This document shows positions 187 through 23,700 of a stretch of 29,840 bases of DNA, piece by piece. The notes under the pieces are model-generated. The model saw only the letters and a list, made by a program, of their open reading frames with translations. It had not been told where the DNA came from and made no database searches. Where the stretch lies: NCBI GenBank assembly GCA_903889605.1, contig CAISYK010000953.1, positions 1-29,840 of the forward strand. Direction: 5' to 3'. Position 1 is the first letter of the stretch, and every line of letters begins with the position of its first letter. Made by a program: the position numbers and the translations under genes. This stretch comes from an uncultured Bacteroidota bacterium (GTDB lineage: Bacteria > Bacteroidota > Bacteroidia > 2-12-FULL-35-15).

Positions 187-1350
187 TTAATGAAGGATAA
201 CTAATTTTTTTGTAATCAATTTCTTGTTGTTTTCAGTTTCTGCAGCGATGAAGTATATGCCGTTTGGTATATTCTCAGTATTGATTTTAAAATTATTGCT
301 TTTACGGTAATTTACTTCCTGAATAACTGCTCGCCCCTGCATATCATATATTACAACCGAGTGAATATTTGAGCCTGAAACTTCAACAAAATTTTGTGCA
401 GGATTTGGGTACAAGTCATCTGAATTATTAGTTAAAGACTCTTCAATACGGTTGGCTGTAGTATTCCATCCAATTTCCTTTAAAATGCCGAGTTCCCGGT
501 AGGCTGGCCTCCTTATAGTATCTCCCGCTCCCCAGCAATAACTCATAATTGAGCCGCAAACTGAACTGTGCAGATGCAGTAAATCTACACCCAAAGTAAA
601 AGTACCGGTACCGCCGGATAATTTTATTGGCTGCCCTCCATTTGAAGGGTTTGCAAAATTCGGCCCGTCAAAATAATTTGATGTGTACTTGATGCTGTCT
701 CCTAATATTGTTGTGTTGTTTGGGGCTAAACCAACTAAATGGTTCTGGGATTTTTTAATAATAAATTTATCATAGATGGAAGGGACGCTGTCTTGCCCAT
801 GCCATGGGAATGATGCTGTTATAGGGAAAAGAGCTGATGCCGGAATGTTCCCAAATGAACCTATGTTACCCGAATTTACATAACCAGCACTATAAAAACC
901 TAATCCGTGTCCAATTTCGTGCATTATCAAAGTTATAAAGTCATCCTGACTGCCTGACGGCATTCCAGTTCCATAATACATAGGGGTAGCTAAATTGACA
1001 TAAATATCCATATCATATTCGCCGGGATTTAATTCTGTTCCAGCCAGTTGATTAGCTAATGCCGTAGGATATATAAAATTGCTGAATGGAGCATTGGTAA
1101 AGTTTTTTCGCCCGTTTGCTAAGGTAATTGCTGAAAAAGGGTATTGTGAGTTATTAACTAAAAATATATTAACCTTAACGGGTTCCGTTATTATTAGATA
1201 ATTGCCCCATCTGTCTCCGGCGCTGTTCAGAGCAGAAACAAGTCCGGCAGGAACTGAGCTTCCGTTAACATTAAAAGAAAATGTACTGGATGTTTGAGCA
1301 GTAATATGAATTACAGAAATTATAAATAAAGACAGCAGCAGTTTTTTCAT
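187..1350 (-). CDS. Secreted zinc metalloprotease-like protein with T9SS type A C-terminal sorting domain
   Basis: Sec signal MKKLLLSLFIISVIHITA-Q; zincin motif HEIGHGLGFYS (H144, nt 889-921); distal LLHLH...IMSY; C-terminal LYPNPAQN...IYDMQGR...GIYFI...KKLVILH typical of TIGR04183/Por_Secre_tail. Confidence 0.8.
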   Translation of the reverse strand: MKKLLLSLFIISVIHITAQTSSTFSFNVNGSSVPAGLVSALNSAGDRWGNYLIITEPVKVNIFLVNNSQYPFSAITLANGRKNFTNAPFSNFIYPTALANQLAGTELNPGEYDMDIYVNLATPMYYGTGMPSGSQDDFITLIMHEIGHGLGFYSAGYVNSGNIGSFGNIPASALFPITASFPWHGQDSVPSIYDKFIIKKSQNHLVGLAPNNTTILGDSIKYTSNYFDGPNFANPSNGGQPIKLSGGTGTFTLGVDLLHLHSSVCGSIMSYCWGAGDTIRRPAYRELGILKEIGWNTTANRIEESLTNNSDDLYPNPAQNFVEVSGSNIHSVVIYDMQGRAVIQEVNYRKSNNFKINTENIPNGIYFIAAETENNKKLITKKLVILH

Positions 1351-1707: not shown

Positions 1708-4700
1708 ATGAAATTTGTAAAACTACTCTCCATTGCATTATTCACTGCTTTTATTTTTCAATCGGCAAAAGCTCAAACAGTAACAGTTATTACTCCAAAT
1801 GGGGGAGAGGTGCTGTATGCCTGTCAAAGTTATAACATTACCTGGAGCCAAACTGGGAATCCGTCAAATTACTGGAACATCGATTATTCATCTAATGGCG
1901 GCGCTACATGGACTTCTGTTGCCAGTAACCTTTTGATTTCCAATGGAACTTTTGCATGGACGGTCCCTAACTTACAATCAAGTACAGTAATAATGCGAAT
2001 TGTGGATGCCGCGAATGGTAACGTAACTGATCAGAGTAATTCCAACTTTAGTATTAATATCCCAGTTACAGTAAATATTCCTAATGGCGGAGAAAGCTGG
2101 TTGGCAGGAACAACCCAGAATATCACCTGGACAGCCTTAGGAACTTCAGGGATTTTTGATATTTATTATTCTGTAAATGGAGGAAGTTCATGGAATACTA
2201 TTGTGAGCAATTATACAACAGGCGCAGGAACATATGCCTGGGTGGTGCCTAATAATCCTTCGGCATTCTGTCTTGTAAAAGTACAGGATCATACAACATC
2301 ATGCAGGGTTGATAACAGTAATACAAACTTTACAATTGTGGCTGCAACGCCTATTGTTCTCACTCCAAACGGTACTGAAACAATGTATATGAATTGTGTT
2401 TATACCATTACTTGGAACACACAGACATTTTATTCACCTGTAAAGCTGGAGTATTCAACCAACAGCGGTTCCACTTGGGTTACTATAGTTTCTTCCACAT
2501 CCAATTCAGGCGCATACAGCTGGACTATTCCAAGTACAGCGTCGGGCAGCTGTCTTGTAAAGGCCAGCAATACTGCAGATCTTGCATCTTATGATGTGAG
2601 TAATGCTGTTTTCGCAATATCTCCTGCAGTAACAGTGGTGTCGCCAAACGGAACAGAAACATTAAACGGGTGCAGCAGTTATACCATAACCTGGAACAAA
2701 ACTACCTGCGTAGGAAACTGGAATATTGCCTACTCTGCAGATAATGGCGGCAGCTGGACTAATATTGTCACCAACCTTGCTAATACAGGGGTCAACAGCC
2801 AATCATATACATGGTATGTCCCAAACAATATTACTACCTCACAAGCGCTTATCCGGGTAGAATCATATAATAATCCGGGAACATACACTGATGCGAGCAA
2901 TGCCGCTTTCAATATCAATCCAAACAATAATATTACAGTATCTGCGCCTAACGGAACTGAAACATGGATTGGATGCTCTTCTTATTCAATTAACTGGACA
3001 AAGCTGAGCGCTCCATGCAACACATATTTCGATTTATATTACTCTTTAAATAACGGGTCTACTTATAATTATATTACAACTGTAGCAGATAACGGGCAGA
3101 CTTCTCAATCATATTCATGGAGTATTCCTAATACGCTAAACAGCAGCCAATGTTTAATCAAAGTGGCATCAGACAATTGGCCTACAGTTTTTGATGTGAG
3201 CAACGCAGCATTTACAATTACTCCAAGTGCTGATGTTACAGTTTTAATTCCAAACGGAGCAGAAGTATGGCAGGGCTTAACATCTCATAACATTACCTGG
3301 AGCAATTTGTCGGGTGCATCCGGGTTATATAACGTGGAATATTCTACTAACAACGGTTCAAACTGGACTTCCCTTGCATCAAATATATCCGGGAATTCTT
3401 ATACATGGGCATCTGTTCCGAACACTCCAAGTACAACTTGCCTGGTAAGAGTTACAGATTATCTTAATCCATGTAAATATGATATGAGCAATGCGGTTTT
3501 TACAATATCAGCTGCAGCGCCTGTCCTTACATATCTGAATGGAGGCGAAATAATTAATGTTGGATGCTCATCAAGCATATACTGGACGGCGGCAACTTTT
3601 TATTCTTCGGTAAATTTATATTACTCTACCAATGGAGGAAGCAGTTATACCTTGATTGCTTCATCTTTACCTAATAACGGCTCATACAGCTGGACTGTAC
3701 CGAATGATGCCTCTGCAAATTGTTTGATAAAGGCTGCCAACTCAGCCGATGTAAATGTGTTCGATGTGAGCAATGCTCCGTTTACCATAAATGTACCGCT
3801 AACAATTACTGCAGCGAACGGAGGCGAATCTTGGATTGGCTGTAATAGCTATAATATTACCTGGACCAAATCAAATTGTCTTGGTAATTGGAATCTATAT
3901 TATTCAACTAATAATGGTTCAACCTGGACCGCTATAGTAAACTACCTTGCCAACTCAGGAACGGCCTCTCAAAGTTATTTATGGCAGGTGCCTAACGGAA
4001 TCACAACTACACAAGCAAAGATTAAAGTAGAATCGTATAATGATCCTTCAACTTATTTTGATGTGAGTGATGCAGCTTTCAATATCAACCCAAGTAACGA
4101 CATTACAGTGACAGCTCCAAACGGCGGGGAAACATTAACTGCATTAACAACATATGTAATTACATGGACCAACCTTCCTGCAGCGTCAGGACAGTATTCA
4201 CTTCAGTATTCAACCAACAATGGAGCTTCTTATTCTTCCATTGTTTCAAATATCACCGGCAACTCTTATACCTGGACAGTGCCAAATACCTCCAGCAGCC
4301 AATGTTTAGTTAAAGTTATCGACTATGTTAATACTTGTAAGTTTGATGTAAGCAATGCTCCATTTACAATAACTCCTGCCGGGCCTGTATTATTATCTCC
4401 AAACGGCGGTGAAACAGCATATATTAACTGTTACACAACCATTACCTGGGCTTCTTCAACTTTCATTTCGGCTGTTAAGCTTGAATATTCAACCAACAAT
4501 GGATCAACATGGACCCTGATCACATCAAGCACATCAAATACAGGAAGCTATAGCTGGCTTGTGCCTAATACAGTTTCGGCAAACTGTATAATAAAAGCAA
4601 GCAACACGTCCAATCTTACCTTATTCGATGTTAGTGATGCGGTATTTGCTATTGCTCCGGCAGCAACGGTAACTTCACCTAACGGCGGAGAAACTCTCAC

Positions 4701-7700
4701 AGGATGCAGCAACTATACTATCACCTGGAGCAAATCAATCTGTCTCGGCAACTGGAACTTAGAATATTCAACAAATAATGGAGTTTCATGGACTACCATT
4801 TCAAATAATATTTCCAATACTGGTGCCAACATACAATCATACAACTGGTATGTTCCTAACAGCATCACAACAGCACAGGGACTTATTCGTGTATCTTCAT
4901 ATTCAAACCCGGGAACTTATTTTGATGCGAGCAATGCTGTATTCAGTATAAATCCAAATAATAACATCACGGTTGTATCGCCAAATGGCGGCGAGGTTTG
5001 GGCAGGATGTTCCACTTATAATATTACCTGGTCAAAATTAACTTCGCCATGCAACACTTCTTTTGATTTATACTACTCTTTGAACAATGGAAGCACCTAT
5101 ACTTATTTTGCAAGCGCTTCTGATAATGGACTTGCTTCGCAGTCATATTCATGGAGTATCCCAAATACATTAAGCGGTAATCAGTGCCTTATCAAGGTGG
5201 TATCAGGCAACTGGCCTACGGTTTTTGATGTCAGCGATGCTGTATTTACTATTAATCCAAGTGTTGATATTACTGTGACAAGCCCCAATGGCGGTGAGGT
5301 TTGGCAGGGATTGTCTTCCCATGTTATCACCTGGACCAACCTGCAGGGAGCATCAGGATTGTATAATATAGAGTATTCTATAAACAACGGAACAAACTGG
5401 ATTCAATTAGCAGCAAATTATTCAGGCAATTCATATACCTGGCCGATAGTGCCTAACACGCCAAGCACAGCATGTTTGGTGAGAGTTACCGATTATCTTA
5501 CTCCATGTAAATACGATGTCAGCAATGCAGTATTTACTATTTCTCCTGCAACACCTATTCTAACATCACCAAACGGCGGTCAGACATTCAAAGTTGGCTG
5601 CGGCGCCAGTATAACCTGGACAAGCTCAACATATTATTCTACTGTAACGCTTTACTATTCATCTAACGGAGGAACAACATGGAACTCCATAGCAACAGTC
5701 GCAAATAACGGGGCTTATACCTGGACTGTTCCAAATGCCGCTTCCGGCAATTGCCTGATAAAAGCTGCCAATTCTGCGGATCTGAACGTTTTTGATATCA
5801 GCGATGCCCCTTTCACTATTAGTGTTCCTCTTACAGTCACATCCGCAAACGGCGGCGAATCTTGGGTCGGATGCAGCACTTATAACATAACGTGGACCAA
5901 AAGCACATGTATCGGTAACTGGAATATATCTTATTCAACAGATAATGGCGCAAACTGGATAGCAATAGCAAATAACGTAACTAACACAGGAGTGGCTTCG
6001 CAGTCCTACCCATGGTCTGTTCCAAACACAATTACCACAACACAGGCTCTTATTAAAGTGGAGTCCTATACCAGCCCAGGAATATATTTTGATGTCAGTG
6101 ATGCCGTGTTTACAATTAACCCAAGCAACGATTTAACTATAATAACCCCTAACGGCGGCGAAACAATCGCTTCATTAACAAATTACAATATTACATGGAG
6201 CAACCTGCCTGCAGCGTCAGGGCAATATGATTTGTATTATTCTACAAATAACGGCGGTTCCTGGACCAATATAGTTTCAAACATTACAGGTAACTCATAC
6301 ACCTGGAGTGTGCCGAATCTTTCAAGTACACAGTGTTTGATTAAAGTGTATGATTATGTCAATTCTTGTAAGTATGATGTAAGCAATGCTGTATTTACAA
6401 TTACTCCTCCAACTCCGATTCTGTTAACACCTAATGGAGGTGAAACTTTATACATTGGATGTTCTTATAATATAACTTGGAATCCTTCTACTTTTATTTC
6501 CACAGTAAACCTTGACTATTCTACCAACGGCGGAATTACCTGGCTGCCTATTTTGGCCGGTACAGCAAATGACGGAACACAATCATGGACAATTCCAAAC
6601 ACTCAATCACTGAATTGTCGTGTTAGAGCAAGCAACTCCATAGATGTTTCAATATTTGATATCAGTGATGCTTCATTCACAATTGCACCATCGGTACAGG
6701 TTATTACCCCTAACGGAGGTGAAACACTAACAGGATGCAGCAGTTATAACATAACATGGAACAAAACAAATTGTGTCGGAAGCTGGAATATACAGTACTC
6801 ACTAAATAATGGTGTTTCCTGGACAAATATTGTGACCAACCTGACTACAACCGGACCAAATTCCCAAACCTATATCTGGTATGTGCCAAATAACCTAACC
6901 ACAACTCAAGGCCTTATTAAGGTATCTTCATATTTAAACCCTAGTACTTATTGGGATCAAAGTAATGCAGTATTCAGCATCAACCCTAGTAACAACATTG
7001 TGTTGATTACACCAAACGGCGGAGAAACCTGGACGGGCTGTCAGTCATATAATATTACATGGTCTAAGTCATCATCTCCCTGCAACACAAATTACGATTT
7101 ATACTACTCTTTGAATAACGGAGTTTCTTATGTTTATTTTGCAAACGTCGCGGATAATGGTAATCCTACTCAAACTTATTCATGGACCGTTCCTAACACA
7201 ATTTCAAGCACTCAGGTATTAATCAAGGTCGTTTCCGGTAATTGGCCTACAGTTTTTGATGTAAGCAATGCGGTTTTTAATATCAACATGAATGTAGATG
7301 TAACTGTTACTTCACCTAATGGAGGGGAGTCGCTGCAGGGGCTTTCAACTCAGGTGATTACCTGGAACAACTCTGTTTATGCATCTGGGTTATACAATAT
7401 TTATTATTCTACTAATGGCGGTTCTACATGGAACACAATCGCCACAAACGTGTTTGCAAACTCTTATACCTGGAGTGTACCTAATACACCAAGCACCACA
7501 TGCTTAATAAAAGTGGAAGATTATCTTGCCGACTGCAGATTCGATATTAGTAATGCAAATTTTACAATTTCTCCGGCTACGCCTATACTTCTTACACCAA
7601 ACGGCGGAGAAGTATTGAATTCGGGTCAGACTTATGGTATCACATGGACAGCTTCTACATATTTTTCTACAGTGAATCTTTATTATTCCGCAGATAACGG

Positions 7701-10700
7701 TATTACATGGAACACAATTGTTACTAATCAGACAAATAGCGGCTCTTATACATGGACAGTTCCAAATGTGAATTCCGCTAACTGCCTGGTAAAAGCTGCA
7801 AACTTTGCTGATGTGACAATATTTGATGTCAGCGATGCGGTATTTACGATCAAACCTGCCGTGAAGATTGTTACTCCTAACGGAGGAGAAAGTGTCGGCG
7901 GATGCACGGTAACGTCTATTACCTGGGAGAGATCTCCATATTGGAACTCATATAAAATTGAATACTCCACTAACAATGGTGCATCCTGGAATACAATAGC
8001 CGCAAGTTACTCAACGTCTGCAAACCCTGCTACGTATATCTGGACATTGCCAAATACTGCATCTGCTCAAACATTAGTAAGAGTAACACCTACACTTGCG
8101 GTTTCCTATTATGACCAAAGTGATAATGTATTTACAATAACGCATCCTGTAACTATTATTCAGCCAAACTTAGGCGGAACAATGACGGTGGGAAACACAT
8201 ATAATATCACATGGAACTCGGATGGTATTTCGAATTTATATGATATTTATTATTCAACCAATGGAGGTACTTCTTATACCAATATTGTAACAGCTTATAA
8301 CACAAGTACAAATATATACGCATGGACAGTTCCTAATTTCCCATCTACTAACTGTAAGATTTGGGTAAAGGATAATACAGCTTCATGTAAACAAGATACC
8401 AGTGATGTAGTTTTTACAATTAGTTTAACAGCGGCTCCTATTACAGTGCTTACTCCAAACGGCGGTGAGAACCTGAGCGGGTGCTTCCCATATAATATTA
8501 CCTGGTCCGAACCTACAACAATCGGAACATATGACATATTATATTCAACTAACAGCGGATCTTCATGGAATAATATTGTAACCGGATATGCAACTTCATC
8601 ACATAACTATGCCTGGAATATCCCCAATACGATAAATTCCAGTACCTGCCTCATAAGGGTAAGGTCGACATCAACCCCAACAACCTATGATCAGAGTGAC
8701 GCTTTGTTGAGTATCCACTACGGAAACCTAACTGCGCTGCCATCAGATACAACAGTATGCTCCGGGCACACAGTGCAGCTTAATGCTTCCAATGGCGTTA
8801 ATTATACATGGAGTCCATCAACCGGATTAAGCTGCACTTCTTGTGCAAATCCTATAGCTACTCCTTTAGCTGGCACAACTTATACCGTTACATCAACTAA
8901 TAACGGATGTATCTTAACCGATACTGCACGTATTAATGTTTTTACTGCATCAGTAACAATCGCCGCATCTCCTGCCGGAACAATTTGTACAGGAACAAGC
9001 GTTACATTCACTGCCGCACCTGTAAATGGCGGAACAACACCTGCGTATCAATGGTATCTGAATGGGACGCCGACAGGTTCGAACAGCCCAACCTTCACAA
9101 ATTCAGGCTTAGCTAATGGTAATCAGGTTTATTGTGTCATGACATCTAATGCCCCTTGTCTGATAACTAACACCGCCACTTCCGGTACAATTACTATGAA
9201 TGTAATTTCTATACCGGCTGTTCCAGGAACCATCTCTGGAACAACGACTATTTGCTCGGGAACAAGCAACACCTACAGCATAACAGCGGTGAGCGGAGCA
9301 ACTTTTTATACATGGACATTGCCGGGCGGCTGGACAGGAACCTCTACTACAATTAGTATACCATCAACATCCAGCAGTACAAGCGGAAACATTACAGTGA
9401 CATCAGGAAATACATGCGGATCTAGTTCCGCTAAAACACTTGCTGTTACCGTGAATGTCATTCCTTCCACTCCCGGCACTATTTCTGGTCTTACAACTAT
9501 CTGCAGCGGAACAAGCAATACATACAGCGTTATTGCAGTGAGCGGAGCAACATCTTATTCATGGACATTACCAGGCGGTTGGACAGGAACTTCCGCAACA
9601 AACAGTATTACAGCAACCGCAAGCACAACAAGCGGCAGTATTACGGTGACTGCAAATAACAGCTGCGGAAACAGTTCTGCACAAACATCAGCAATTATTG
9701 TTAATACAACACCGGCAATGCCAGGAACAATTTCAGGAACGACTCCAATTTGTGCCGGTTCCACAAACACATACAGCGTCACAGCTGTGAGCGGAGCATC
9801 ATCATATACTTGGACATTACCTAACGGCTGGACAGGAACTTCTGCAGCCGCTAGTATCAGCGCTGCGGCAAGTACAACCAGCGGCAATATAACAGTTACC
9901 GCAGACAATACATGCGGAAGCAGTGCAGTAAAAACATTGGCCGTTATTGTAAATTCAATACCTGCTGTACCTGGAACAATTACGGGTTCAGCAACCATTT
10001 GCCAGGGCAGTTCAAATACATACAGCATAACAGCAGTAAGCGGTGCAGCTTTTTATACCTGGACATTGCCAGGCGGCTGGACAGGTACTTCATCAACAAA
10101 TAGCATTACTTCAACTGCTGGCAATACAAGCGGAAACATCACAGTGACTGCCGGAAACACTTGCGGATCAAGTTCAGCTCAAACACTTGCAGCTACTGTG
10201 AATTTGATTCCAAATGCACCTGGAACAATTTCAGGCCTTTCAACAATATGCAGCGGAACAAGTAATACTTACAGCATCACTGCTGTGAGCGGAGCAGCGT
10301 CTTATACTTGGACATTACCTGGCGGCTGGACTGGAACTTCTGCAACAAACAGTATAACTGCAGCCTCAAGTACAACCAGCGGCAATGTTACTGTAACTGC
10401 CAATAACAGCTGCGGAAGCAGTTCTGCACAAACGTTACCAATAACTGTTAATACCCCCCCGGCAATACCTGGAACGATTTCAGGAACTACTCCAATTTGT
10501 TCTGGTACTTCAAATACTTATAGTATTACAGCCGTAAGCGGAGCAACATCTTATACATGGACGCTCCCTAATGGCTGGACAGGCACTTCAACAACCGCAA
10601 GTATAACTGCTGCGGCAAATACAACCAGCGGAAGCCTTACTGTAACTGCAAACAATGGATGCGGCGGAAGTGCAGTAAAAACCTTAGCCGTAAATGTCTA

Positions 10701-13700
10701 TTCTATTCCTGCTGCACCCGGAATAATTACCGGTTCAGCAGCAGTTTGTGAGGGCAGTTCAAATATTTTCAGCGTGACAACCGTACCTGATGCAACTGTA
10801 TATAACTGGACGTTACCATTAGGCTGGACTGGCTCTTCAACAACAAATAGTATTACGGCAGGCGCTAATAATACAGCTGGCAACATTACAGTCACCGCAG
10901 GCAATATTTGCGGCACAAGCAGCGCTCAAACGCTAGCGGTAACAATCAACCCCTTACCGAATGTGACAGCTGGAGGCACAGCAACAATCTGTGCAGGACA
11001 ATCAACCCCTTTAACATCCGGCGGCGGAATATTATTCAGCTGGCTGCCAACAACCGGATTAAACAATCCTTCTATCTCTAATCCTTCTGCCAGCCCAACC
11101 ACAACAACTACTTATACTGTTACAGGAACTTCGGCATCTTCATGCTATGCCACCGCCACAGTAACAATAACAGTAACACCCGGCCCTACAATCACTCCTT
11201 CTGCAAGCACTTCAATTTGTGCAGGCAGCAGTACCGCATTATCTGCAAGCGGGGCGACTGCATTCAGCTGGCTTCCTGTGACTGGACTTAGCAACCCTTC
11301 GATATCAAATCCATCGGCAACCCCATCGGCTACTACTACTTATACCGTAACGGGCACGACAGGTTTGTGTTCTGGTACAGCATCAGTTACCATTACCGTT
11401 AATTCTATTCCTACTGTTACAGCGGGCACAGCAGCTACTATCTGTTCGGGATCTTCTACTCCTTTAACTTCAGGCGGTGCTTCAGGTTTCAGCTGGCTGC
11501 CTACAGCAGGATTAAGCAGCGCCTCGATTTCAAATCCGTCCGCATCTCCAGCAGCAACAACTACATATACTGTCACAGGAACGTCTTTAAATTGTTCTTC
11601 AACCGCAACGGTTACAATTACTGTAAATGCTTTAACCGTTAGTGCCGGCAGTGATGCCGCAATCTGCCAAGGCGGTAATACTGCACTTTCCGCTTCCGGA
11701 GGAACGGCGTTTTCATGGCTGCCTGCAACAGGGCTTAGTGCTGCTAATATCGCAAATCCAACAGCAAGCCCAACAACAACTACAACATATACAGTAACTG
11801 TCACTTCCGGCTTATGTTCTGCGACTGATGCGGTTTTGGTAACAGTAAATTCACCTCCGACTGCTAATGCCGGTTCGGATGTTTCAATAGCATGCGGTGG
11901 AAATACAACACTTTCAGCAAGCGGAGGCGGAACCTATTCATGGCTGCCTGCAACCGGATTAAGTAATACAAATACAGCAAATCCAGTTTGTACTCCTCCA
12001 TATTCAATTACATATACAGTGACTGTTTCTAACGGAACATGTTCGGCAACTGACCAGGTAATTGTAACAGCAGGTTCACTCACAGCAAATGCAGGCACAG
12101 ATGCCTCTATTTGTACAGGAGGCAGCACAACGCTGAGCGGTTCTTCTTCTGCTCTTCCATGGGTTGATGTAGCAAACAGCTATTCATTCGCTCAGAATAC
12201 TGCATCGTTTACGCTGATTACCGGCGGAACTATTGTTTTGAACTCTGGAAGTTCATCAATGGATGACATCGTTTCCGGTCCTTTCACCATGCCTTCATTT
12301 AAATTTAATAATATTACCTATACTTCTGTATATATATCCACCAACGGATTCATTACATTCGGTTCTGCACCTACGAGCACTAATTACAATCCAATAAGTT
12401 CTTCAGAAACTTATGCCGGTGCCGTTTCAGGATTCGGTGTAGATTTAAACAGAGCTGCTGCCGGAACACCTGAGATCAGATACCAGACTGTTGGAACTGA
12501 ATTCATTGTTCAGTATAGGGATATGGGAAGGTATGGTTCAGGAGGTACGCTGGATAGGCTCAGTTTCCAGATTCGTTTAAATACAGTTGGCAATACAGTA
12601 AAAGTTGTTTATGATGCACCAGGCCTCATAGGAGCAGCTTCTTCTGATCCTGAAGTAGGATTAAGAGGTCCGAACAATACTTTTACCACCAACGTTCATA
12701 ACAGGTCGGTAATATCCTCAACAGGATCATGGGTAAACTCAACGCAGGGCAGCGCAAATTCAAGTGTATGCTTCTTCGAAAGCTCTGCTCCAAATACGAA
12801 ACCCAGTGCCGGAACTACATTCACATGGACTCCGGTAAGCGGCGGAACAACCACCTATGCATGGTCTCCTTCAACCGGTTTGAGTTCAACCACAATTGCA
12901 AATCCTGCGGCGAATCCAACAACTACCACTACATATACGCTGACTGCAACAAACGGATCCTGCAGTGCTATTGATATGGTAACTGTTACTGTAGGGATAA
13001 GTAATGCTAATGCCGGTGCTGATGCAGCAATATGTACAGGTGGAAATACCAATCTAAACGCAACAGGAGCAACAACTTATTCGTGGCTGCCTGCGACAGG
13101 CCTTAGTGCTGCTAATATTGCAAATCCTATTGCATCACCAACAACGACAACCTCCTACACGGTAACCGGAACCAGCGGAACATGCACATCAACTGATATA
13201 GTTGTTGTTACAGTTAATTCAGTGCCTGTTGCTAATGCAGGAAACGATGTGTCGATTTGCACAGGAAACAGTACTGCGCTAAGTGCATCCAGCGGTTCGA
13301 CCTATTCATGGCTGCCTGCCACTGGATTAAGCTCAGCAGCAATTGCAAACCCTTCGGCAAATCCAAGTTCAACAACAACATATACCGTGACCGTTTCGAA
13401 CGGAAGCTGCTCATCAACGGATATGGTTATAGTTACAGTTGTAGCTCCTCCAGCAGCCAATGCAGGAACTGATGCGGCAATCTGCGCAGGAAACAATACT
13501 GTATTGAGTGCATCAGGCGGAACATCTTATACCTGGCTGCCAGCAGCAGGATTAAGCAGCGTTTCGATAGCCAGCCCGGTTGCATCTCCAACAACTACGA
13601 CAACATATACAGTATCTGTTTCGAACGGAACATGTGCTGTAACAGATATGGTAGTGGTTACAGTGAATACGGTTCCAGCAAATGCCGGATCTAATGCAGC

Positions 13701-14655
13701 AATTTGCAGCGGAAACAGCGCGGCGTTATCTGCATCAGGCGGCACCTCATACTCCTGGTCGCCCGGCACAGGCTTAAGCTCAACGAGCATCGCTAATCCT
13801 ACAGCAAATCCGACAGTTACAACAACTTATACTGTGATAGTTTCAGATGGAACTTGTTCCGCGACAGATTCTGTGATTGTTGCCGTGGCCAGTTCCCTTC
13901 CAGCCTCTCCGTCTTCGATAATCGGTGCAGCGTCTATTTGTGCTGGTTCAAATCAAACATACTCTGTTGCTTCTGATCCAAATATATCTTCATATGCATG
14001 GGTAATTCCAGGAGGGTGGAATGGTTCTTCTGTAACTAACAGCATCACAGCTTCTGCTGGTTCAAATGGCGGAATAATAGAAGTAACAGCGACAAATGGA
14101 TGCGGATCTGCTGCGCCTGCCGCATTGAACCTAACCGTAAATCCATTACCAACAGTCACAATGTCGGCACTTGGAACAGTTTGTGTTTATTCTCCAGCAT
14201 TTACACTTTCAGGCGGCAGTCCTGCAGGCGGGATTTATTCAGGTTCTGGTGTAACCAGCAATACTATTTTCACACCTGTATCGGCTGGTGCCGGCACCTT
14301 CATTATTACGTATGTTTACACTGATGGGAATGGCTGTTCAAATAATGCAAACAGTGCAATCAATGTGGATGTGTGTACCGGAATTACCGCTTTAACAGAT
14401 AATAGTAAAAGTGATGTTATTGTATTTCCAAATCCATTCAGCACTTATACAACAGTTCATATCAACGGAAACATAATCTTGAATGGCTCTGCTGTTAAGG
14501 TGTTTGATTTGACCGGCAAAAATGTTCTAAACATTACGAATATACAATCATACGATGTGAAAATAGAAAGGAAGGATTTGCAGGCAGGGATTTACTTCTA
14601 CCAGTTCGTGAACGATAATCATATTGTAAGTACCGGCAAATTGATTATTAATTAA
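1708..14655 (+). CDS. Giant (4315 aa) T9SS-secreted multi-repeat surface protein / putative adhesin with type A CTD
   Basis: Uninterrupted ORF; signal peptide MKFVKLLSIALFTAFIFQSAKA-Q; about 45 tandem beta-sandwich-type repeats of several classes; C-terminal VFPNPFS...VFDLTGK...GIYFY...GKLIIN (nt 14377-14655). Confidence 0.9.
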   Translation: MKFVKLLSIALFTAFIFQSAKAQTVTVITPNGGEVLYACQSYNITWSQTGNPSNYWNIDYSSNGGATWTSVASNLLISNGTFAWTVPNLQSSTVIMRIVDAANGNVTDQSNSNFSINIPVTVNIPNGGESWLAGTTQNITWTALGTSGIFDIYYSVNGGSSWNTIVSNYTTGAGTYAWVVPNNPSAFCLVKVQDHTTSCRVDNSNTNFTIVAATPIVLTPNGTETMYMNCVYTITWNTQTFYSPVKLEYSTNSGSTWVTIVSSTSNSGAYSWTIPSTASGSCLVKASNTADLASYDVSNAVFAISPAVTVVSPNGTETLNGCSSYTITWNKTTCVGNWNIAYSADNGGSWTNIVTNLANTGVNSQSYTWYVPNNITTSQALIRVESYNNPGTYTDASNAAFNINPNNNITVSAPNGTETWIGCSSYSINWTKLSAPCNTYFDLYYSLNNGSTYNYITTVADNGQTSQSYSWSIPNTLNSSQCLIKVASDNWPTVFDVSNAAFTITPSADVTVLIPNGAEVWQGLTSHNITWSNLSGASGLYNVEYSTNNGSNWTSLASNISGNSYTWASVPNTPSTTCLVRVTDYLNPCKYDMSNAVFTISAAAPVLTYLNGGEIINVGCSSSIYWTAATFYSSVNLYYSTNGGSSYTLIASSLPNNGSYSWTVPNDASANCLIKAANSADVNVFDVSNAPFTINVPLTITAANGGESWIGCNSYNITWTKSNCLGNWNLYYSTNNGSTWTAIVNYLANSGTASQSYLWQVPNGITTTQAKIKVESYNDPSTYFDVSDAAFNINPSNDITVTAPNGGETLTALTTYVITWTNLPAASGQYSLQYSTNNGASYSSIVSNITGNSYTWTVPNTSSSQCLVKVIDYVNTCKFDVSNAPFTITPAGPVLLSPNGGETAYINCYTTITWASSTFISAVKLEYSTNNGSTWTLITSSTSNTGSYSWLVPNTVSANCIIKASNTSNLTLFDVSDAVFAIAPAATVTSPNGGETLTGCSNYTITWSKSICLGNWNLEYSTNNGVSWTTISNNISNTGANIQSYNWYVPNSITTAQGLIRVSSYSNPGTYFDASNAVFSINPNNNITVVSPNGGEVWAGCSTYNITWSKLTSPCNTSFDLYYSLNNGSTYTYFASASDNGLASQSYSWSIPNTLSGNQCLIKVVSGNWPTVFDVSDAVFTINPSVDITVTSPNGGEVWQGLSSHVITWTNLQGASGLYNIEYSINNGTNWIQLAANYSGNSYTWPIVPNTPSTACLVRVTDYLTPCKYDVSNAVFTISPATPILTSPNGGQTFKVGCGASITWTSSTYYSTVTLYYSSNGGTTWNSIATVANNGAYTWTVPNAASGNCLIKAANSADLNVFDISDAPFTISVPLTVTSANGGESWVGCSTYNITWTKSTCIGNWNISYSTDNGANWIAIANNVTNTGVASQSYPWSVPNTITTTQALIKVESYTSPGIYFDVSDAVFTINPSNDLTIITPNGGETIASLTNYNITWSNLPAASGQYDLYYSTNNGGSWTNIVSNITGNSYTWSVPNLSSTQCLIKVYDYVNSCKYDVSNAVFTITPPTPILLTPNGGETLYIGCSYNITWNPSTFISTVNLDYSTNGGITWLPILAGTANDGTQSWTIPNTQSLNCRVRASNSIDVSIFDISDASFTIAPSVQVITPNGGETLTGCSSYNITWNKTNCVGSWNIQYSLNNGVSWTNIVTNLTTTGPNSQTYIWYVPNNLTTTQGLIKVSSYLNPSTYWDQSNAVFSINPSNNIVLITPNGGETWTGCQSYNITWSKSSSPCNTNYDLYYSLNNGVSYVYFANVADNGNPTQTYSWTVPNTISSTQVLIKVVSGNWPTVFDVSNAVFNINMNVDVTVTSPNGGESLQGLSTQVITWNNSVYASGLYNIYYSTNGGSTWNTIATNVFANSYTWSVPNTPSTTCLIKVEDYLADCRFDISNANFTISPATPILLTPNGGEVLNSGQTYGITWTASTYFSTVNLYYSADNGITWNTIVTNQTNSGSYTWTVPNVNSANCLVKAANFADVTIFDVSDAVFTIKPAVKIVTPNGGESVGGCTVTSITWERSPYWNSYKIEYSTNNGASWNTIAASYSTSANPATYIWTLPNTASAQTLVRVTPTLAVSYYDQSDNVFTITHPVTIIQPNLGGTMTVGNTYNITWNSDGISNLYDIYYSTNGGTSYTNIVTAYNTSTNIYAWTVPNFPSTNCKIWVKDNTASCKQDTSDVVFTISLTAAPITVLTPNGGENLSGCFPYNITWSEPTTIGTYDILYSTNSGSSWNNIVTGYATSSHNYAWNIPNTINSSTCLIRVRSTSTPTTYDQSDALLSIHYGNLTALPSDTTVCSGHTVQLNASNGVNYTWSPSTGLSCTSCANPIATPLAGTTYTVTSTNNGCILTDTARINVFTASVTIAASPAGTICTGTSVTFTAAPVNGGTTPAYQWYLNGTPTGSNSPTFTNSGLANGNQVYCVMTSNAPCLITNTATSGTITMNVISIPAVPGTISGTTTICSGTSNTYSITAVSGATFYTWTLPGGWTGTSTTISIPSTSSSTSGNITVTSGNTCGSSSAKTLAVTVNVIPSTPGTISGLTTICSGTSNTYSVIAVSGATSYSWTLPGGWTGTSATNSITATASTTSGSITVTANNSCGNSSAQTSAIIVNTTPAMPGTISGTTPICAGSTNTYSVTAVSGASSYTWTLPNGWTGTSAAASISAAASTTSGNITVTADNTCGSSAVKTLAVIVNSIPAVPGTITGSATICQGSSNTYSITAVSGAAFYTWTLPGGWTGTSSTNSITSTAGNTSGNITVTAGNTCGSSSAQTLAATVNLIPNAPGTISGLSTICSGTSNTYSITAVSGAASYTWTLPGGWTGTSATNSITAASSTTSGNVTVTANNSCGSSSAQTLPITVNTPPAIPGTISGTTPICSGTSNTYSITAVSGATSYTWTLPNGWTGTSTTASITAAANTTSGSLTVTANNGCGGSAVKTLAVNVYSIPAAPGIITGSAAVCEGSSNIFSVTTVPDATVYNWTLPLGWTGSSTTNSITAGANNTAGNITVTAGNICGTSSAQTLAVTINPLPNVTAGGTATICAGQSTPLTSGGGILFSWLPTTGLNNPSISNPSASPTTTTTYTVTGTSASSCYATATVTITVTPGPTITPSASTSICAGSSTALSASGATAFSWLPVTGLSNPSISNPSATPSATTTYTVTGTTGLCSGTASVTITVNSIPTVTAGTAATICSGSSTPLTSGGASGFSWLPTAGLSSASISNPSASPAATTTYTVTGTSLNCSSTATVTITVNALTVSAGSDAAICQGGNTALSASGGTAFSWLPATGLSAANIANPTASPTTTTTYTVTVTSGLCSATDAVLVTVNSPPTANAGSDVSIACGGNTTLSASGGGTYSWLPATGLSNTNTANPVCTPPYSITYTVTVSNGTCSATDQVIVTAGSLTANAGTDASICTGGSTTLSGSSSALPWVDVANSYSFAQNTASFTLITGGTIVLNSGSSSMDDIVSGPFTMPSFKFNNITYTSVYISTNGFITFGSAPTSTNYNPISSSETYAGAVSGFGVDLNRAAAGTPEIRYQTVGTEFIVQYRDMGRYGSGGTLDRLSFQIRLNTVGNTVKVVYDAPGLIGAASSDPEVGLRGPNNTFTTNVHNRSVISSTGSWVNSTQGSANSSVCFFESSAPNTKPSAGTTFTWTPVSGGTTTYAWSPSTGLSSTTIANPAANPTTTTTYTLTATNGSCSAIDMVTVTVGISNANAGADAAICTGGNTNLNATGATTYSWLPATGLSAANIANPIASPTTTTSYTVTGTSGTCTSTDIVVVTVNSVPVANAGNDVSICTGNSTALSASSGSTYSWLPATGLSSAAIANPSANPSSTTTYTVTVSNGSCSSTDMVIVTVVAPPAANAGTDAAICAGNNTVLSASGGTSYTWLPAAGLSSVSIASPVASPTTTTTYTVSVSNGTCAVTDMVVVTVNTVPANAGSNAAICSGNSAALSASGGTSYSWSPGTGLSSTSIANPTANPTVTTTYTVIVSDGTCSATDSVIVAVASSLPASPSSIIGAASICAGSNQTYSVASDPNISSYAWVIPGGWNGSSVTNSITASAGSNGGIIEVTATNGCGSAAPAALNLTVNPLPTVTMSALGTVCVYSPAFTLSGGSPAGGIYSGSGVTSNTIFTPVSAGAGTFIITYVYTDGNGCSNNANSAINVDVCTGITALTDNSKSDVIVFPNPFSTYTTVHINGNIILNGSAVKVFDLTGKNVLNITNIQSYDVKIERKDLQAGIYFYQFVNDNHIVSTGKLIIN
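1777..8721 (+). repeat. 24 tandem ~95-aa PNGGE...ITW...YSxNxG..W...W.VPN...D.S...F.I repeats (resemble the Kre9/KNH Ser-Thr-rich family, PF10342)
   Basis: Counted directly in the translation (aa 24-2338). The family name is from recognition of the consensus, not an HMM run. Confidence 0.85.
9211..10953 (+). repeat. Seven tandem 83-aa (249-nt) PKD-like repeats (PGTISG..TIC.G..NTYS...YTWTLP.GWTG...CG; resemble PF19408); an eighth copy lies at 13897-14145
   Basis: Exact 249-nt spacing: starts at 9211, 9460, 9709, 9958, 10207, 10456 and 10705. Confidence 0.85.
10954..13896 (+). repeat. Ten tandem ~75-aa Ig/PKD-like repeats (ANAG.D..IC.G....LSASGG..YSWLP.TGLS...IANP.A.P..TTTYTV...C); the sixth is split by an inserted domain
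   Basis: Counted in the translation. A further copy of this repeat type lies at 8722-8943. Confidence 0.85.
12151..12840 (+). other. ~230-aa non-repeat domain inserted inside a repeat of the giant protein; possibly nidogen/NIDO-like
   Basis: The host repeat reads TTLSGSSS-[insert]-GGTTTYAWSPSTGLS. The insert carries F.FNNITY..VYISTNGFITFG, which resembles the motif at the start of NIDO-like domains. It is homologous to nt 20847-21566. Confidence 0.7.
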
Positions 14656-14708: not shown

Positions 14709-14741
14709 GCCCCCCCCTGTCAATTTTTTTGACAGGAGGGG
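14709..14741. terminator. Hairpin between convergent genes; probable terminator or REP-like element
   Basis: CCCCCCCTGTCAA-TTTTT-TTGACAGGAGGGG forms a 13-bp stem with one mismatch. An A-tract at 14701-14706 would give a U-tract on the minus strand. Confidence 0.55.
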
Positions 14742-14852: not shown

Positions 14853-17800
14853 TTATCCTACCACTTTTCCTTCTTCAATGTATACTAATAACTTTTCAGT
14901 AACTGTATAACCCATTTGGTTTAACAAATCGGCATATTGAAGAATTTGTTTTGTGTGTGCCGGCTTTTCTTCACCTGTTTTATAATCAATAATTACGGCT
15001 GTTAATCCGCTTTCTGACTTTGAATGCAGAATAACTCTGTCGAGGCGGAATTTTTCGCCGGTCAAAGAAATTATTTCAGCTTCATTTTTCACAACTAAGC
15101 CATGTGCAAAATGCGCTTTAAGTTTCGGCAGTTTAATGATTTTTTTAATTACGGCCAACAAATTTTCTTTTTCATCGGAAGTAACCAACCCTTCAGAAAA
15201 CATTGAATTTACAGCAGATTCAACATCATCTGCTGTTTTAATTTTTGCCAAAGCCGTATGAACCATCACACCGTAATCTTTTTTACTGTCGGCCATTTCT
15301 AAATTCCAAATACTTGGAGCCGCGGTGCGCATTTTAATATTATTTCTCCACTGATTAGAATTGAAAGTTTCAAGTTTAAAATTTAAAATTTTAGAACTTT
15401 GTAAATGTTTTTGATGTTCGGTCTCTTTACCAAAAGTATAAACGGTTTCCCCCTCCTGCCATTCACCATTAATTTGATAATAATGTGCAAACATATCACT
15501 AACTGTACTCAAATTGGCGGGAAATTTTGATGGTTTACCGGTAAGTATATACAAACGTTCTTCTGGGCGTGTCAGAGCTACATATAAAACATTCAAACTA
15601 TCAAGCAGGGACTTATTTTTTTCATCATCATATAAATCGCCGTAAGGGGTTTCCCTTAAACTTTCGCTGGCCGAAACCAATGCAGAAGCCATTTGCGGGA
15701 TTTTTGAATTTTCTAAATCTACCCATAAATGTTTTTTTCCTTTTTCTACTTTTCCATTAGAAAAAGGCAGTATTACCACCGGAAATTCAAGTCCTTTGGC
15801 TCGGTGAATTGTCATAATGGTAACCGCATTCATTCCAAGAGGCACTATCAATGAGGCCTTAGCTTTTTTATCTTCCCAATAATCAATAAAATCATTCAGA
15901 TTATTGTTTTGTTTTATAGAATAGTTCAAGACTTCATCCAAATAAAATTGAATGTATGCATTGGGAGTTTTATTGAGTTTAAACAAACGCACGAGCTCTT
16001 CGCAAAGTTCATACAACGCCATTTTAGAAAGCGCATTTGTATTAAAATCAGGACAAACTTTTTTAACGATTGAAATAAATTCCTGTTTATTTTCAACCAG
16101 CAGCTGGTTAATATCAAAGTTAAAATCAGCTCCGGCGATGTTCGAAACTTCTGAAATGGCAGGCTTTGAAGCATCATCAATAATTGCCTTTGCGGCATCA
16201 ACCCTAACTGGGTTTGAAACCCTGTCAGAGGGGGGGGGCGGAATAAGTTTAGAAGCAACAAAGTATTCCAATAATTCGGCCTGTATTATCTGGTCACTCG
16301 TATTATTCAAATATCTGAGCAGTGAATAAATAAAATTTACTTCGGCAGAATTGCTCAACAGGAGGGAATCCGAAGAAATCACTTCAATTCCTTTGTTTGA
16401 TAAATAATTTGCAATATCACTGCCGTCACTATTCTTCCTTACTAAAACGGCGACATCCCTTAGTTGAAAATTATGCTGCAGCAGATCCTGGATAATTGAA
16501 TATGTGCGTTCCAGATTTTGGTCCCGCATATCTTCTTTTTCACTGTCAAGAAATTCAACCTGAACGTATCCGCCAATATTTTCCGGATTAAATCCTTGTT
16601 CCAGCTTGTCGTAAATGCTCTTAAATTTATCGTTTAATTTATTGGACAGAGTTCTGAAAATAGAATTGTTGAATTCAATTATTTCACGTTTGCTGCGGTA
16701 ATTTTTATCCAGCATCTGAGGGTTATGATTCCGCTTCAAGGCTTGTTCGCGCTCTAATACCAGAGGGTTATTGTTGTGTGCAAATACTTCTGGCAGCATG
16801 GCAAACTGTTCAACTTCACCTCCGCGCCAGCGGTAAATAGCCTGTTTGCCGTCACCAACAAGCATGGTAAAATGCCCGCTTGCCAATGAATTATCAATTA
16901 AGGGCAGCAGGTTTTGAAATTGCAGAACAGAAGTATCCTGAAATTCATCAATCAGATAATTATTGTACCTCTCCCCCAAACGCTCATAAATAAAAGGAAT
17001 TGGCTCGTTAAGTACAATTTTGGCAATCAGTTTATTGAACTCAGAAATGTGCAGAATATTATTTTGAGCTTTATATTCATTCAGGAGCTTTTCAATTTCA
17101 TTTAATACCGCCAATGAATAAATTGTTGTATTAATCAACCTGAATAATGCCGCCTCCTGTAAATTAATTTTAATATAATTTAAAGCCTCATTAAACAAAT
17201 CAACTAACGCCTGTTTTACAGCATCAATACCATTTTTGTCAGCAGTATCTGCTTTACCTGCGTACCATTTATCAGCATCAATATTTTTCTGAATTGTATT
17301 TGAAGGCATCAATTTATCGAACCGTGATTCGGTCAGATAAGTAAAATACTTGCCTATACCATTGGCTCCGCCAGCGAATTTATCATGCTCAATTCCTGAA
17401 TCGCTGATAATTTTTAACGCATCTTTTCCGCACCTGTTAATGAATGCTTCAAATTTTTTAATCTCCGCCTGTATGGTGTCTTTAATTTTAAAAAAATCAT
17501 CAATGCTTAAATGCCTTAGCTTTTCAATGTGCACTGCGCCTTCTTCGTTGAGCAGATTTTTAGCAAAATATTTCAGGTCATTTTCTATGTGCCAGCTTTT
17601 TTCATCATCAGTTTTGCTTTCGGTAAATTCCACCAATGCCTTTGTCAGTGTTTCATCAGTTCCAATCTGTGCAATCAACAGGTCAATGGCTTGTGTCAGA
17701 AGTTTATCGTCATCCATTTCCAATTCAAAGCTCATTGGTATTTTTAGGTCAAATGCAAAAGTTCTTACTATCTTATGTACAAAGCTGTCGATGGTTCCAA

Positions 17801-18167: not shown

Positions 18168-18378
18168 TTCTGATTAGCTATCCTCGTATGTTGACTGACG
18201 ATCGAAATCCTGATTCTTAAGCTGGAATTGTATTGCAAAATACACATTTATTGAATAGTATTGTATATAGATTTATAGCTTGAAGGATTAATAAACAGAA
18301 AGTATAGGCCAGACAATACTATAAAAACGGGGCGAAACCGAAAAGCCAAATAAGGTGAAAATTAAAGGCAATGTATTT

Positions 18379-20736: not shown

Positions 20737-20745
20737 TAATTTTGC
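20737..20745 (+). promoter_or_regulatory. Bacteroidota sigma70 -7 box TAATTTTGC for the GEVED protein gene
   Basis: Exact TAnnTTTG, about 42 nt before the ATG at 20787. A TTTG lies at 20718-20721, but the 15-nt spacer is shorter than canonical. Confidence 0.5.
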
Positions 20746-20786
20746 ACCCGATAAAAATAAAACACAAAACTAAAAAAGCAATAAAA

Positions 20787-23700
20787 ATGAAAAAAGCTGT
20801 ACTTACTTTATTTTCAATTTCTGCCTTGTTTAATTTTTCGAGCGCACAGGTTAGTTCATACTCTTTTGCATCAAGCACGGGAACATACGCTGCAATTACC
20901 GGCGGAGCTGTTTTGGGTGATACAACCACCGATGAGAGGAACTTTTTAGACCCGTCAGTTCCTTTGGGAGTTACAACATCAACAACAACCGGTGTTGGTT
21001 TTCCAATAGGTTTTAATTTTACCTATAATGGGATAGTTTTTGATAAGTTGGCCATAAATAACAATGGATGGATAAGTTTGGGGCAAACCAGTTTAACTCC
21101 GCACGTAAATATTGATTCGTATGATTATTATTCTTTGCCGCTTTCTCAAACATCGGCAGCTATTCCAGCACTTTTACGGAATAGAATTGGTGGTCTCGCT
21201 TTGGATTTAGATTCACAATTTGGCTCTGAGCTGAGAATACAGACAATAGGAACGACACCAAATATGGTTTGTGTAATACAGTGGAAAAATTATAAACAAT
21301 ACGGAAGTTACGGAGACATATATAATTTCCAAATTCGTTTAAAAGAAACCTCAAATGTTGTTGAAGTTGTTTACGGTACTATGGTTAATAGTGCCACATC
21401 AACTGATGCTCAAGTTGGCTTGAGCGGGACTACTGATCCTGATTTTAATATTAGGGAAACATCATCTAACTGGGCTTCAACAACCACAGGAATTGCAAAT
21501 ACTGCCACATGCTTTCTTTCTTCTACAATAAAACCGGCAAGCGGACAGACCTTTTCCTGGACTCCTTCGCCAGTTTGCACTGGAACTCCAACAGCAGGAA
21601 CTATAACAGGCCCAACAGGAGCTTGCTCAGGAGTAAGCTACAATCTAATACTAACAGGTTATTCTTCCAATGTTTCAGGTCTTACTTTTCAGTGGCAGTC
21701 GTCATCAACTTTAGGCGGAACCTATGCTCCCATTGCTGGCGCTACTTCCGTAACATATACAGCAACTCAAACAGCTGCAACTTATTATAAGTGTGTTGTT
21801 ACCTGCAGCGGATCGCCTGCCACCACAGCAGCTTTTTCTGTACCTATGAATACCGGAATATATTGTTATTGTACTGCTACTAATGGCGGTGGAGCTTGTA
21901 TTACTAATGTTACATTAGGCACCTTAAACCGGACATCAGCAGCGTGTGAAAATTCTCCAAGTTATTATACCTCGGTTCCTATTGGAACAGCTACAACAAC
22001 TGTTAATCAAGGAGTGTCATACCCTATGTCAGTTACCACCGGCAGTTCAGGCGCGGCCATTTTATCTGTTTGGATTGATTATAACCAAAATGGAACGTTT
22101 GAAGCCTCCGAATGGAATCAAATTGCGACAAACGCTCTTGCTTCAACTACAACGACTATTAATGTTATAATTCCCGGTTCTGCTGTATTAGGTCAAACTG
22201 GAATGAGAATTAGATCCCGCAGCACGGGCAATCCAAATGGGTCAGGTGATGCTTGTACAGCAATGGTTTCTGGTGAAACAGAAGATTACATGATAACTAT
22301 AGGCGCAGGCGCAGCATGTACCGGAACACCAACAGCAGGAACTGCGACTGGCCCGGCAAGTATCTGCAGCGGAGTAAGCTTTAACCTTTTATTAACAGGG
22401 TATACTTCAGGAGTAACTGGAATTACACTTCAGTGGCAATCCTCAGCAACATTAGGCGGAACCTATTCAGACATTGTAGGTGCCACTTCCCCGACCTATG
22501 CAGGAACACTAACTGCTTCAACTTATTATAGGTGTGAAGTTGTCTGCGGCAACGGAACACCTGTTTATTCAAATATTGTAACTGTAACTTTAACCCCCGC
22601 TTCAGGGTGCTATTGCACTCCTGTCCACAGCGTAACGTGCAGTGCAAACTACATTGATAGTGTAAGAATAGGGTCTACAACACTTGCTAATTTACATACA
22701 GGCTGCACAGGAACAGATGGTATGGCATATACTATTTATCCAGCAACAGGTAACACAACCGCATCTTTAACTGGCGGCACTGCTTATACTTTTAAAATTA
22801 CAACAACATCTAGCAACATTGTTTCTGTATGGATCGACTATAATCAAAATGGTCTGTATGAAGCATCTGAATGGACACAGGTATGCATCACATCAACTGC
22901 AAATATTGTAAATACCGCAACTATTACAATACCTGCAAATGCAACATCTGGCCTCACAGGAATGAGGATAAGAAGCCGTTCAGCAGGAAGCCCTAACGGT
23001 TCTTCTGATGCGTGTACCAGCTTTGCCAGCGGAGAAACAGAGGACTATAAAGTAACTATTGTTGCAGCACCAGCATGTACAGGAACTCCAACGGCAGGAA
23101 CAGCTTCAGCAAGTGATGATACTGTTTGCAGCGGTGTAAATTTTAATCTTGTGTTAACAGGCTATACTTCTGGAGTTTCAGGTCTTACTTTTCAATGGCA
23201 GTCATCTACTGATGGAACCACCTATACAAGCATTATTGGTGCCATGACATCTACATACCAAACATTACAAACAGCTGCAAAATATTATAAGTGTTTGGTA
23301 TCCTGCAGCGGCGGAACACCAGCTCCTTCTAATGCTGTACATGTAATAATGAATGACTTAATGAACTGTTATTGTACTTCAACTGCAACCTATGTTGCTG
23401 ACGAAGATATTTTTAATGTTACGGTCGGTACTTTAAATAATTCATCCACTTGTTTAACTACAGGAGGTGTAGGTTCTTCATTGAATAAATATTCAAATTA
23501 TAAGGCTGTTGCAGCGCCGGATCTTGAAAGAAATACTTCTGTTCCTTTTTCTGTTCAAATTGGAACTTGCGGTACCACTCCATACAGCAATGCATTCAAA
23601 ATATTTATTGATTATAACCAAAATGGTTCCTTTGCAGAAGCAGGAGAAGTTGTTTATATTTCTGACACTGCAAAAGGCGGATATACTCAAACGGGAACAT

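Follow-up and report, generated by a model that had tools for sequence, protein, structure and literature searches.

Which end of a giant surface protein does the work when the protein consists almost wholly of repeats? The question is raised by a gene in a 29,840-nt stretch of DNA (the window: positions 1 to 29,840, forward strand, of contig CAISYK010000953.1, assembly GCA_903889605.1) from an uncultured member of the Bacteroidota. An open reading frame (ORF) of 4315 codons runs uninterrupted through the window's translation from 1708 to 14655 on the forward strand; at 39-48%, its GC content compares with 32-43% elsewhere in the window. An earlier note, made from the sequence alone, described its product as a rod exported via a secretion system of type IX (T9SS), with a cell-distal half of pure repeat and a candidate ligand domain close to the cell. 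The analysis below shifts attention to the distal half: no part of the protein is under stronger constraint than its array of 24 PNGGE repeats, which are fixed in number and individualized by position, and the array may well be the working end.

The giant protein was dissected by motif scan, repeat alignment, and iterated hidden Markov models (HMMs) made from its own repeats. The resulting tally, 45 beta-sandwich modules plus an inserted domain and a C-terminal domain (CTD), reproduces domain for domain the order and the count of about 45 that the earlier note had given. In nucleotide coordinates of the window, with amino acid (aa) positions in parentheses, the features are:

1708..1773, forward strand: predicted Sec signal peptide (aa 1-22), read from the translation; the same in orthologues.
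1777..8739, forward strand: 24 PNGGE repeats (aa 24-2344) of 93-101 aa each, by own-repeat HMMs.
8743..9207, forward strand: two transition domains, one immunoglobulin (Ig)-type, Ig_7-like (aa 2346-2411), and one "YQW" Ig-like (aa 2416-2500), by own-repeat HMMs.
9214..10938, forward strand: seven PKD_6 repeats (aa 2503-3077), by PF19408 and own-repeat HMMs.
10939..12072, forward strand: five Ig_7-like repeats of the CHU_C-associated type (aa 3078-3455), by own-repeat HMMs.
12079..12150, forward strand: N-terminal piece of a split Ig_7-like repeat (aa 3458-3481), by HMMs; the split is kept in 12 of 12 orthologues.
12151..12843, forward strand: nested NIDO-like domain (aa 3482-3712, 231 aa), related to the N-terminal domain of RemA, by profile, AlphaFold2 (AF2) model, and fold matches.
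12844..12993, forward strand: C-terminal piece of the split Ig_7-like repeat (aa 3713-3762), by HMMs and orthologue comparison.
13018..13887, forward strand: four Ig_7-like repeats (aa 3771-4060), by own-repeat HMMs.
13900..14412, forward strand: eighth PKD_6 repeat (aa 4065-4141), followed by a last, unique Ig-like domain (aa 4147-4235), by own-repeat HMMs.
14422..14655, forward strand: predicted T9SS type A CTD (aa 4239-4315) and stop codon, by TIGR04183 and PF18962.

The signal peptide has the form MKFVK, a 12-residue hydrophobic core, and AKA|Q, a pattern that recurs in orthologues with Gln at +1. As the earlier note had it, repeats follow directly: the first begins at T24, so no domain stands ahead of the array. 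Pfam finds PF19408 (PKD_6) in eight stretches (E = 2e-129), and Pfam and HMMs together count 11 Ig_7-like and eight PKD_6 units. In every orthologue, the CTD is preceded by the pair formed by the eighth PKD_6 and the unique Ig-like domain. In composition the giant protein carries almost no charge and has S, T, and N in abundance.

The PNGGE repeats find weak matches in Pfam (Kre9_KNH and Reelin_subrepeat-B) and, as a profile, weak matches only in the PDB (reelin and an Fn3-like protein); they also carry an Asp-box-like hairpin motif, YSxxGGxxW. On these weak matches, each repeat is probably an Ig/Fn3-like sandwich with an Asp-box-like hairpin. Within the array a super-repeat of seven units recurs in about 2.7 copies (R3-9, R10-16, R17-21). 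A search of the organism's own genome for PNGGE repeats returned 24 matches, every one inside the giant ORF. A literature search for a bacterial PNGGE domain (terms PNGGE, PF10342, PF21471, and PF19408) found only papers on fungal Kre9/KNH and a survey of fibrillar adhesins.

In the eight closest orthologues the array always has exactly 24 repeats in 2315-2323 aa, collinear and 63-84% identical; it aligns end to end with no more than five residues unaligned. In the same proteins identity is 50-75% for the nested domain, 49-61% for the last two Ig domains, and 37-80% for the CTD. Within the giant protein itself, repeats share a mean identity of just 43.5%, so they appear to be old and individually conserved rather than homogenized. 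Ratios of nonsynonymous to synonymous substitution (dN/dS) against the closest orthologue run from 0.04 to 0.25 depending on the segment (R1 0.04, array 0.07, nested domain 0.115, last two Ig domains 0.25), values that are rough because dS is ~1.3, near saturation; they indicate purifying selection, and the gene is hence neither a chance ORF nor a pseudogene. R1 also ranks among the repeats with the lowest proportion of nonsynonymous differences (pN) in two comparisons. Constraint within the protein is strongest in the PNGGE array, whose repeats are fixed in number, each position keeping its own identity, and R1 is a distinct, conserved cap repeat. This changes the standing of the distal half: the earlier note had described it as pure repeat, but a neutral spacer it is not. 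That note had also named a distinct binding site in repeat 1 as something that would count against its proposal; R1 did turn out distinct and conserved, which does not in itself make it a binding site.

There are 47 cysteines in the array, in four recurring column patterns, with odd counts in R1, R5, R12, R21, and R22. The single cysteine of R1 is kept in eight of eight close orthologues, and the many odd-cysteine repeats in relatives are compatible with inter-domain or inter-chain disulfides. The canonical O-glycosylation sequon of Bacteroidota, D-(S/T)-(A/I/L/V/M/T), does not occur in the array (zero observed, 7.8 expected from shuffles); the whole protein has three where shuffles predict 14.3, despite a Ser plus Thr content of 30%.

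An architecture search, which the earlier note had proposed, found relatives with the same domain order, none of them characterized. Twelve orthologues of 4066-5902 aa share the giant protein's overall order. Their non-array part spans 1727-3076 aa because the numbers of PKD_6 and Ig_7 repeats vary, and neither they nor the giant protein have a head domain ahead of repeat 1, which bears out the claim that a distal tip domain is absent. PNGGE arrays are carried by at least 498 giant proteins in the collection searched; of 112 others examined, 95 have the array (of 18-72 repeats) directly after the signal peptide, so a headless layout is the norm among PNGGE giants. The wider family, ordered N-array, i, y, y, K, i(n), CTD in the shorthand of the domain scan, includes proteins of Aureispira sp. 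CCB-E, A. anguillae, Ca. Fluviicola riflensis, and Brumimicrobium. Positional orthology with the giant protein extends, in the proteins of Aureispira, Fluviicola, and Brumimicrobium, to R1, R2, and the last four repeats, and the NIDO-like domain is absent from them: among PNGGE giants, the nested form occurs only in the giant protein's own 13-member subfamily. PNGGE repeats were present in 71 of 201 genomes searched across the phylum, and PNGGE giants also come from metagenome-assembled genomes (MAGs) of Ignavibacteriaceae and Omnitrophota. No source record gives a PNGGE giant a functional name, and no characterized homologue was found.

As to the nested domain, the earlier note rightly saw a sole large non-repeat domain near the CTD; the interval it gave, about 510 aa, measures 527 aa from domain end to CTD start, which puts the domain within the CTD-proximal quarter. 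The window's own copy matches no Pfam family even at E = 10. A HMMER search with it of 1.8 billion representatives returned 1659 clusters at E ≤ 0.001, and in 136 of the 150 best relatives the domain lies at residues ~20-250, right behind the signal peptide. A profile of 140 members matches RemA of Flavobacterium johnsoniae at residues 20-244 (E = 1.3e-16), and PF06119 (NIDO) is matched by 51 of the 140 aligned family members (best E = 3.7e-6); the nested domain retains all invariant and near-invariant residues of this family. Modeled by AF2 as a single sequence (aa 3452-3765), it reached a predicted local distance difference test score (pLDDT) of 34; from the 140-row alignment, pLDDT exceeded 90 over the NIDO-like core and stayed below 60 in the split Ig flanks, so that the nesting itself is read from the sequence. 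The model matches predicted structures of PLXDC1/2, nidogen-2, nidogen, DEX-1, and a coral mucin-like protein with probabilities of 0.87-1.0, at E-values of 2e-4 to 0.24 and template modeling (TM) scores of 0.34-0.41 by a query that includes the disordered flanks. Many clusters of T9SS cargo in the ESM Atlas match it as well (TM 0.55-0.69), and no solved structure does (Foldseek against the PDB, best E = 0.95). The nested domain is NIDO-like by its modeled fold and belongs, by profile, to the RemA N-terminal family. A carbohydrate-binding fold is not claimed: VIA-align hits among polysaccharide lyases and phosphorylases, to their supersandwich domains, went no higher than Z = 5.1, below the level that would mean more than a common arrangement.

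In 13 of 13 subfamily giants the domain sits between the first ~24 residues and the rest of one Ig_7-like repeat. In a domain tree, the nested copies and the internal copies of proteins P0108 and P0114 form one clade (support 0.93), and the N-terminal copy of a GEVED-domain protein encoded nearby in the window falls in a different one; a single clade points to one old insertion, not to recent exchange with the neighbor. By Ig topology, insertion in the B-C loop at the N-terminal end of an Ig repeat should make the module project sideways near a domain junction. A hairpin with the nested domain at its apex was considered and rejected, with 36 domains ahead of it and only six behind. From nested domain to CTD, orthologues have about six to 15 domains. 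Absence from the wider family makes the earlier note's candidate ligand domain an accessory.

The Ig stalks of P0003, P0012, P0016, and P0018 have one or two additional inserts of ~450 aa (the P0003 insert, the only one scanned, gives a weak SBBP beta-propeller repeat signal), and P0007 has two nested NIDO-like domains; the stalk thus accepts inserted modules repeatedly. In the ESM Atlas, one cluster of ~130 proteins, most of them of tailed-phage (Uroviricota) origin, is predicted to fold like the NIDO-like domain (TM 0.55 by query). SprB repeats are found in some of its members, and phage surface-binding proteins may use the same module.

Export signals at both ends make the giant protein a predicted T9SS type A cargo, as the earlier note had supposed. 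TIGR04183 matches aa 4239-4315 with 38.9 bits (cut-off 23; E = 6e-10) and PF18962 matches with 34.4 bits (cut-off 27); only type A models match, with no hit to the type B CTD (TIGR04131/CHU_C). The genome, a lake-water MAG of 5.6 Mb and 79% completeness, contains an SprA ORF of 2421 aa (PF14349, E = 2e-160); SprA was the component of the machinery searched for. At least 150 ORFs in it carry a type A CTD and ~90 a type B, a T9SS secretome that is very large for 5.6 Mb.

Taken together, the observations are best accommodated by a cell-attached surface fibril of great length that works through its outer end, the PNGGE array; we regard this, the likeliest reading, as about as probable as not. The protein would pass first through Sec and then, PorV-dependent, through the T9SS, with the CTD removed; the new C-terminus would be attached to the cell surface, leaving the N-terminus outward as in GhpA, the grappling-hook filament discussed below. 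Ig-like domains measure 3.5-4 nm each, and 45 of them, assuming full extension, set the contour length: the chain would extend ~150-190 nm, with the array outermost and R1 as its conserved cap. The earlier note's 160-180 nm is likewise a contour length that presumes a fully stretched chain. The array would form a contact surface of defined length, position-specific and multivalent, to catch or hold a partner, for example a particle, polymer, or other cell; a variable stand-off distance would be determined by the Ig/PKD stalk; and the NIDO-like module, gained once by the subfamily, would be a side-mounted accessory binding domain.

Several points weigh against this fibril. We know of no ligand for PNGGE or bacterial NIDO-like domains. 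The rod-like extension and rigidity of the repeats and their junctions are assumed, and assembly or packing constraints could explain the strong conservation of the array, for which the near-saturated dS is a further caution. An orthologue is present in just four of 24 other genomes of the genus, which marks the gene as dispensable and accessory. The sequence turned up only in lake-water DNA runs and in none of the RNA runs, and no protein evidence of its expression was found. Cargo with a type A CTD may, finally, be released rather than anchored (PMC12618676).

A more specific version would make the array a position-specific rod of fixed length, ~90-100 nm, forming the functional end of the fiber, either as a multivalent capture surface capped by R1 or as a ruler that packs in register like the GhpA stem. 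In this detail the proposal is tentative, and distinctly less probable than a working distal array as such.

Among the alternatives, release fares best, although we consider it rather unlikely. Processing of the PorU type would free a long multivalent cross-linker for a matrix or for particles, and type A CTDs do lead to either fate depending on the CTD: AmyB is released, and RemA partly so (PMC12618676). In some orthologues the CTD, at 37-47% identity, belongs to the less conserved parts of the protein, and the animal NIDO domains to which the nested domain is matched by fold are modules of the extracellular matrix. Set against this, the stalk repeats are those of the cell-attached GhpA and SprB-like filaments, and the end module (K-l-CTD) is kept in all orthologues.

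A passive spacer or coat, that is, a brush layer holding off particles, phages, predators, or neighbors with an array that has no specific ligand, would sit well with the missing head domain, the near-uncharged S/T/N-rich composition, the ruler-like fixed length of the array, and a patchy, accessory distribution in the genus. It is nonetheless improbable. A spacer should tolerate substitutions and indels, yet here the repeats are individually conserved, selection on the array is strong, and R1 is among its most constrained units; moreover, the canonical O-glycosylation sequon is depleted, not enriched.

The comparison with the grappling hook of Aureispira needs more care, since the earlier note had cited it as a functional precedent while claiming no homology. 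That caution no longer holds for half of the protein: aa 2340-4315 match the GhpA stem (phmmer, E = 2e-157); the significant stretches number at least 12 and lie within GhpA residues 1143-5681, the best of them between the PKD_6 block (aa 2503-3077) and GhpA 1143-1731, and GhpA is the sole solved protein that they match. By sequence comparison, the homology between stalk half and GhpA stem is one of repeats, without collinear orthology. GhpA (Aureispira sp. CCB-QB1, PDB 9flp) is a T9SS filament of 240 nm, anchored in the outer membrane with its N-terminus distal; its stem of 52 Ig-like repeats forms a heptameric tube with inter-domain disulfides, an N-terminal, adhesin-like hook module takes up 1,377 aa (residues 26-1402), and its gene is adjoined by those of the PorP-like GhpB and the PorE-like GhpC (bioRxiv 10.1101/2024.01.29.577165). 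Could the giant protein likewise build an in-register oligomer, with chains side by side in a stiff rod and a fixed, indel-free array as the sign of lateral packing? Besides the homologous stem, the strictly conserved repeat number and lengths would fit, as would the odd-cysteine repeats of many family members and the conserved lone cysteine of R1. The rest fits poorly. No significant stretch of aa 2340-4315 (a query that excluded the N-terminal half) fell below GhpA residue 1143, in the hook module; no PorP/SprF- or PorE-like gene was found by Pfam among the 11 other window ORFs scanned or, by Pfam labels, near three orthologues; and the surroundings of those three orthologues have nothing in common, which leaves no candidate for a partner gene. 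Orthologues differ freely in their number of stalk repeats, a poor match to a precise tube, and the similarity to GhpA is not collinear. Such an appendage is improbable too, and the giant protein is neither a GhpA orthologue nor a grappling hook.

That it is an ordinary adhesin, with the NIDO-like domain as its main binding site and the PNGGE array as outer decoration, is very improbable: the domain does keep its family's invariant residues, and hundreds of T9SS cargo proteins, RemA among them, do have it as their N-terminal head, but the wider family has the same array and stalk without it, it is less conserved than the array, and its position relative to the CTD varies.

The rest of the neighborhood is partly of the same kind: the window has four T9SS cargo genes in all, the giant included. 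The other features recorded are:

187-1350, reverse strand: 387-aa cargo with a type A CTD and no further Pfam match.
14711-14741: GC-rich 13-bp hairpin and T run between the convergent giant and helicase genes, a likely terminator.
14853-18167, reverse strand: UvrD-type helicase of 1104 aa whose C-terminal domain is a PD-(D/E)XK nuclease, of AddA/RecB type.
18355-18867, forward strand: 170-aa ORF with weak, sub-threshold matches to c-type cytochrome motifs (CXXCH).
18952-20634, forward strand: S8 subtilase with a type A CTD.
20742-24116, forward strand: 1124-aa cargo with an N-terminal NIDO-like domain, three GEVED domains, and a type A CTD.
20853..21566, forward strand: the N-terminal NIDO-like domain of the preceding gene's product, a paralogue of the nested domain and 37% identical to it (E = 2e-16).

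To our knowledge, two giant T9SS filaments have been studied so far, SprB in gliding and GhpA in prey capture. The at least 498 giant relatives found here represent a far larger class, in which the outer end is a repeat array and not a head. If the array is indeed the functional end, it would define a widespread class of headless T9SS appendages in the Bacteroidota, the Ignavibacteriota, and beyond. Its function is directly testable, since close relatives occur in cultured Aureispira, for which cryo-electron tomography and genetics already exist. With the modeled NIDO-like fold, the N-terminal domain that is common in T9SS cargo of the RemA type would also have its first fold-level assignment.

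Of the known systems, RemA of F. johnsoniae (PDB 8gl6 chain D), with RemZ, is like the giant protein a type A CTD cargo, and its residues 20-244 are of the same domain family as the nested domain. A cell-surface adhesin, RemA is part anchored and part released (PMC12618676) and has a rhamnose/galactose-binding lectin domain (PMC11205867), whereas Pfam finds no lectin family in the giant protein. At 1436 aa, RemA has its NIDO-like domain at the N-terminus; in the giant protein it is internal and nested.

SprB-type adhesins and the fibrillar adhesin-like proteins of Bacteroidetes share with the giant protein long tandem stalk domains, PKD_6 among them. SprB itself has a type B CTD, is served by the shuttle SprF, and travels on the gliding track; the giant protein differs in its type A CTD. 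Fibrillar adhesin-like proteins have a Por_Secre_tail or CHU_C anchor, and PKD_6 was defined as a stalk family in the survey that described them (Monzon et al., 2021, PMC8286594). The giant protein has both the stalk and the anchor of this group (eight PKD_6, 11 Ig_7-like, and Por_Secre_tail; PMC8286594), and Pfam finds in it no adhesive domain of the Monzon et al. set. The same survey notes adhesive domains in the middle of such proteins (Monzon et al., 2021, PMC8286594), so that a layout which the earlier note called the reverse of the usual adhesin is less surprising than it then seemed, quite apart from being the norm among PNGGE giants.

In GhpA, the N-terminus is occupied by the hook module; in the giant protein the PNGGE array stands in the place of this head, and the CTD, of type A, has a different context. 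GhpA for its part has neither PNGGE repeats (PNGGE profile against the PDB) nor the nested NIDO-like domain. The giant protein also resembles the other PNGGE giants, most of whose arrays likewise start right after the signal peptide, and from which the giant protein's subfamily is set apart by its nested domain. The kind of protein is an established one, the giant T9SS filament of Ig-like repeats; what had not been described before is a headless, fixed array of 24 PNGGE domains together with a nested NIDO-like module.

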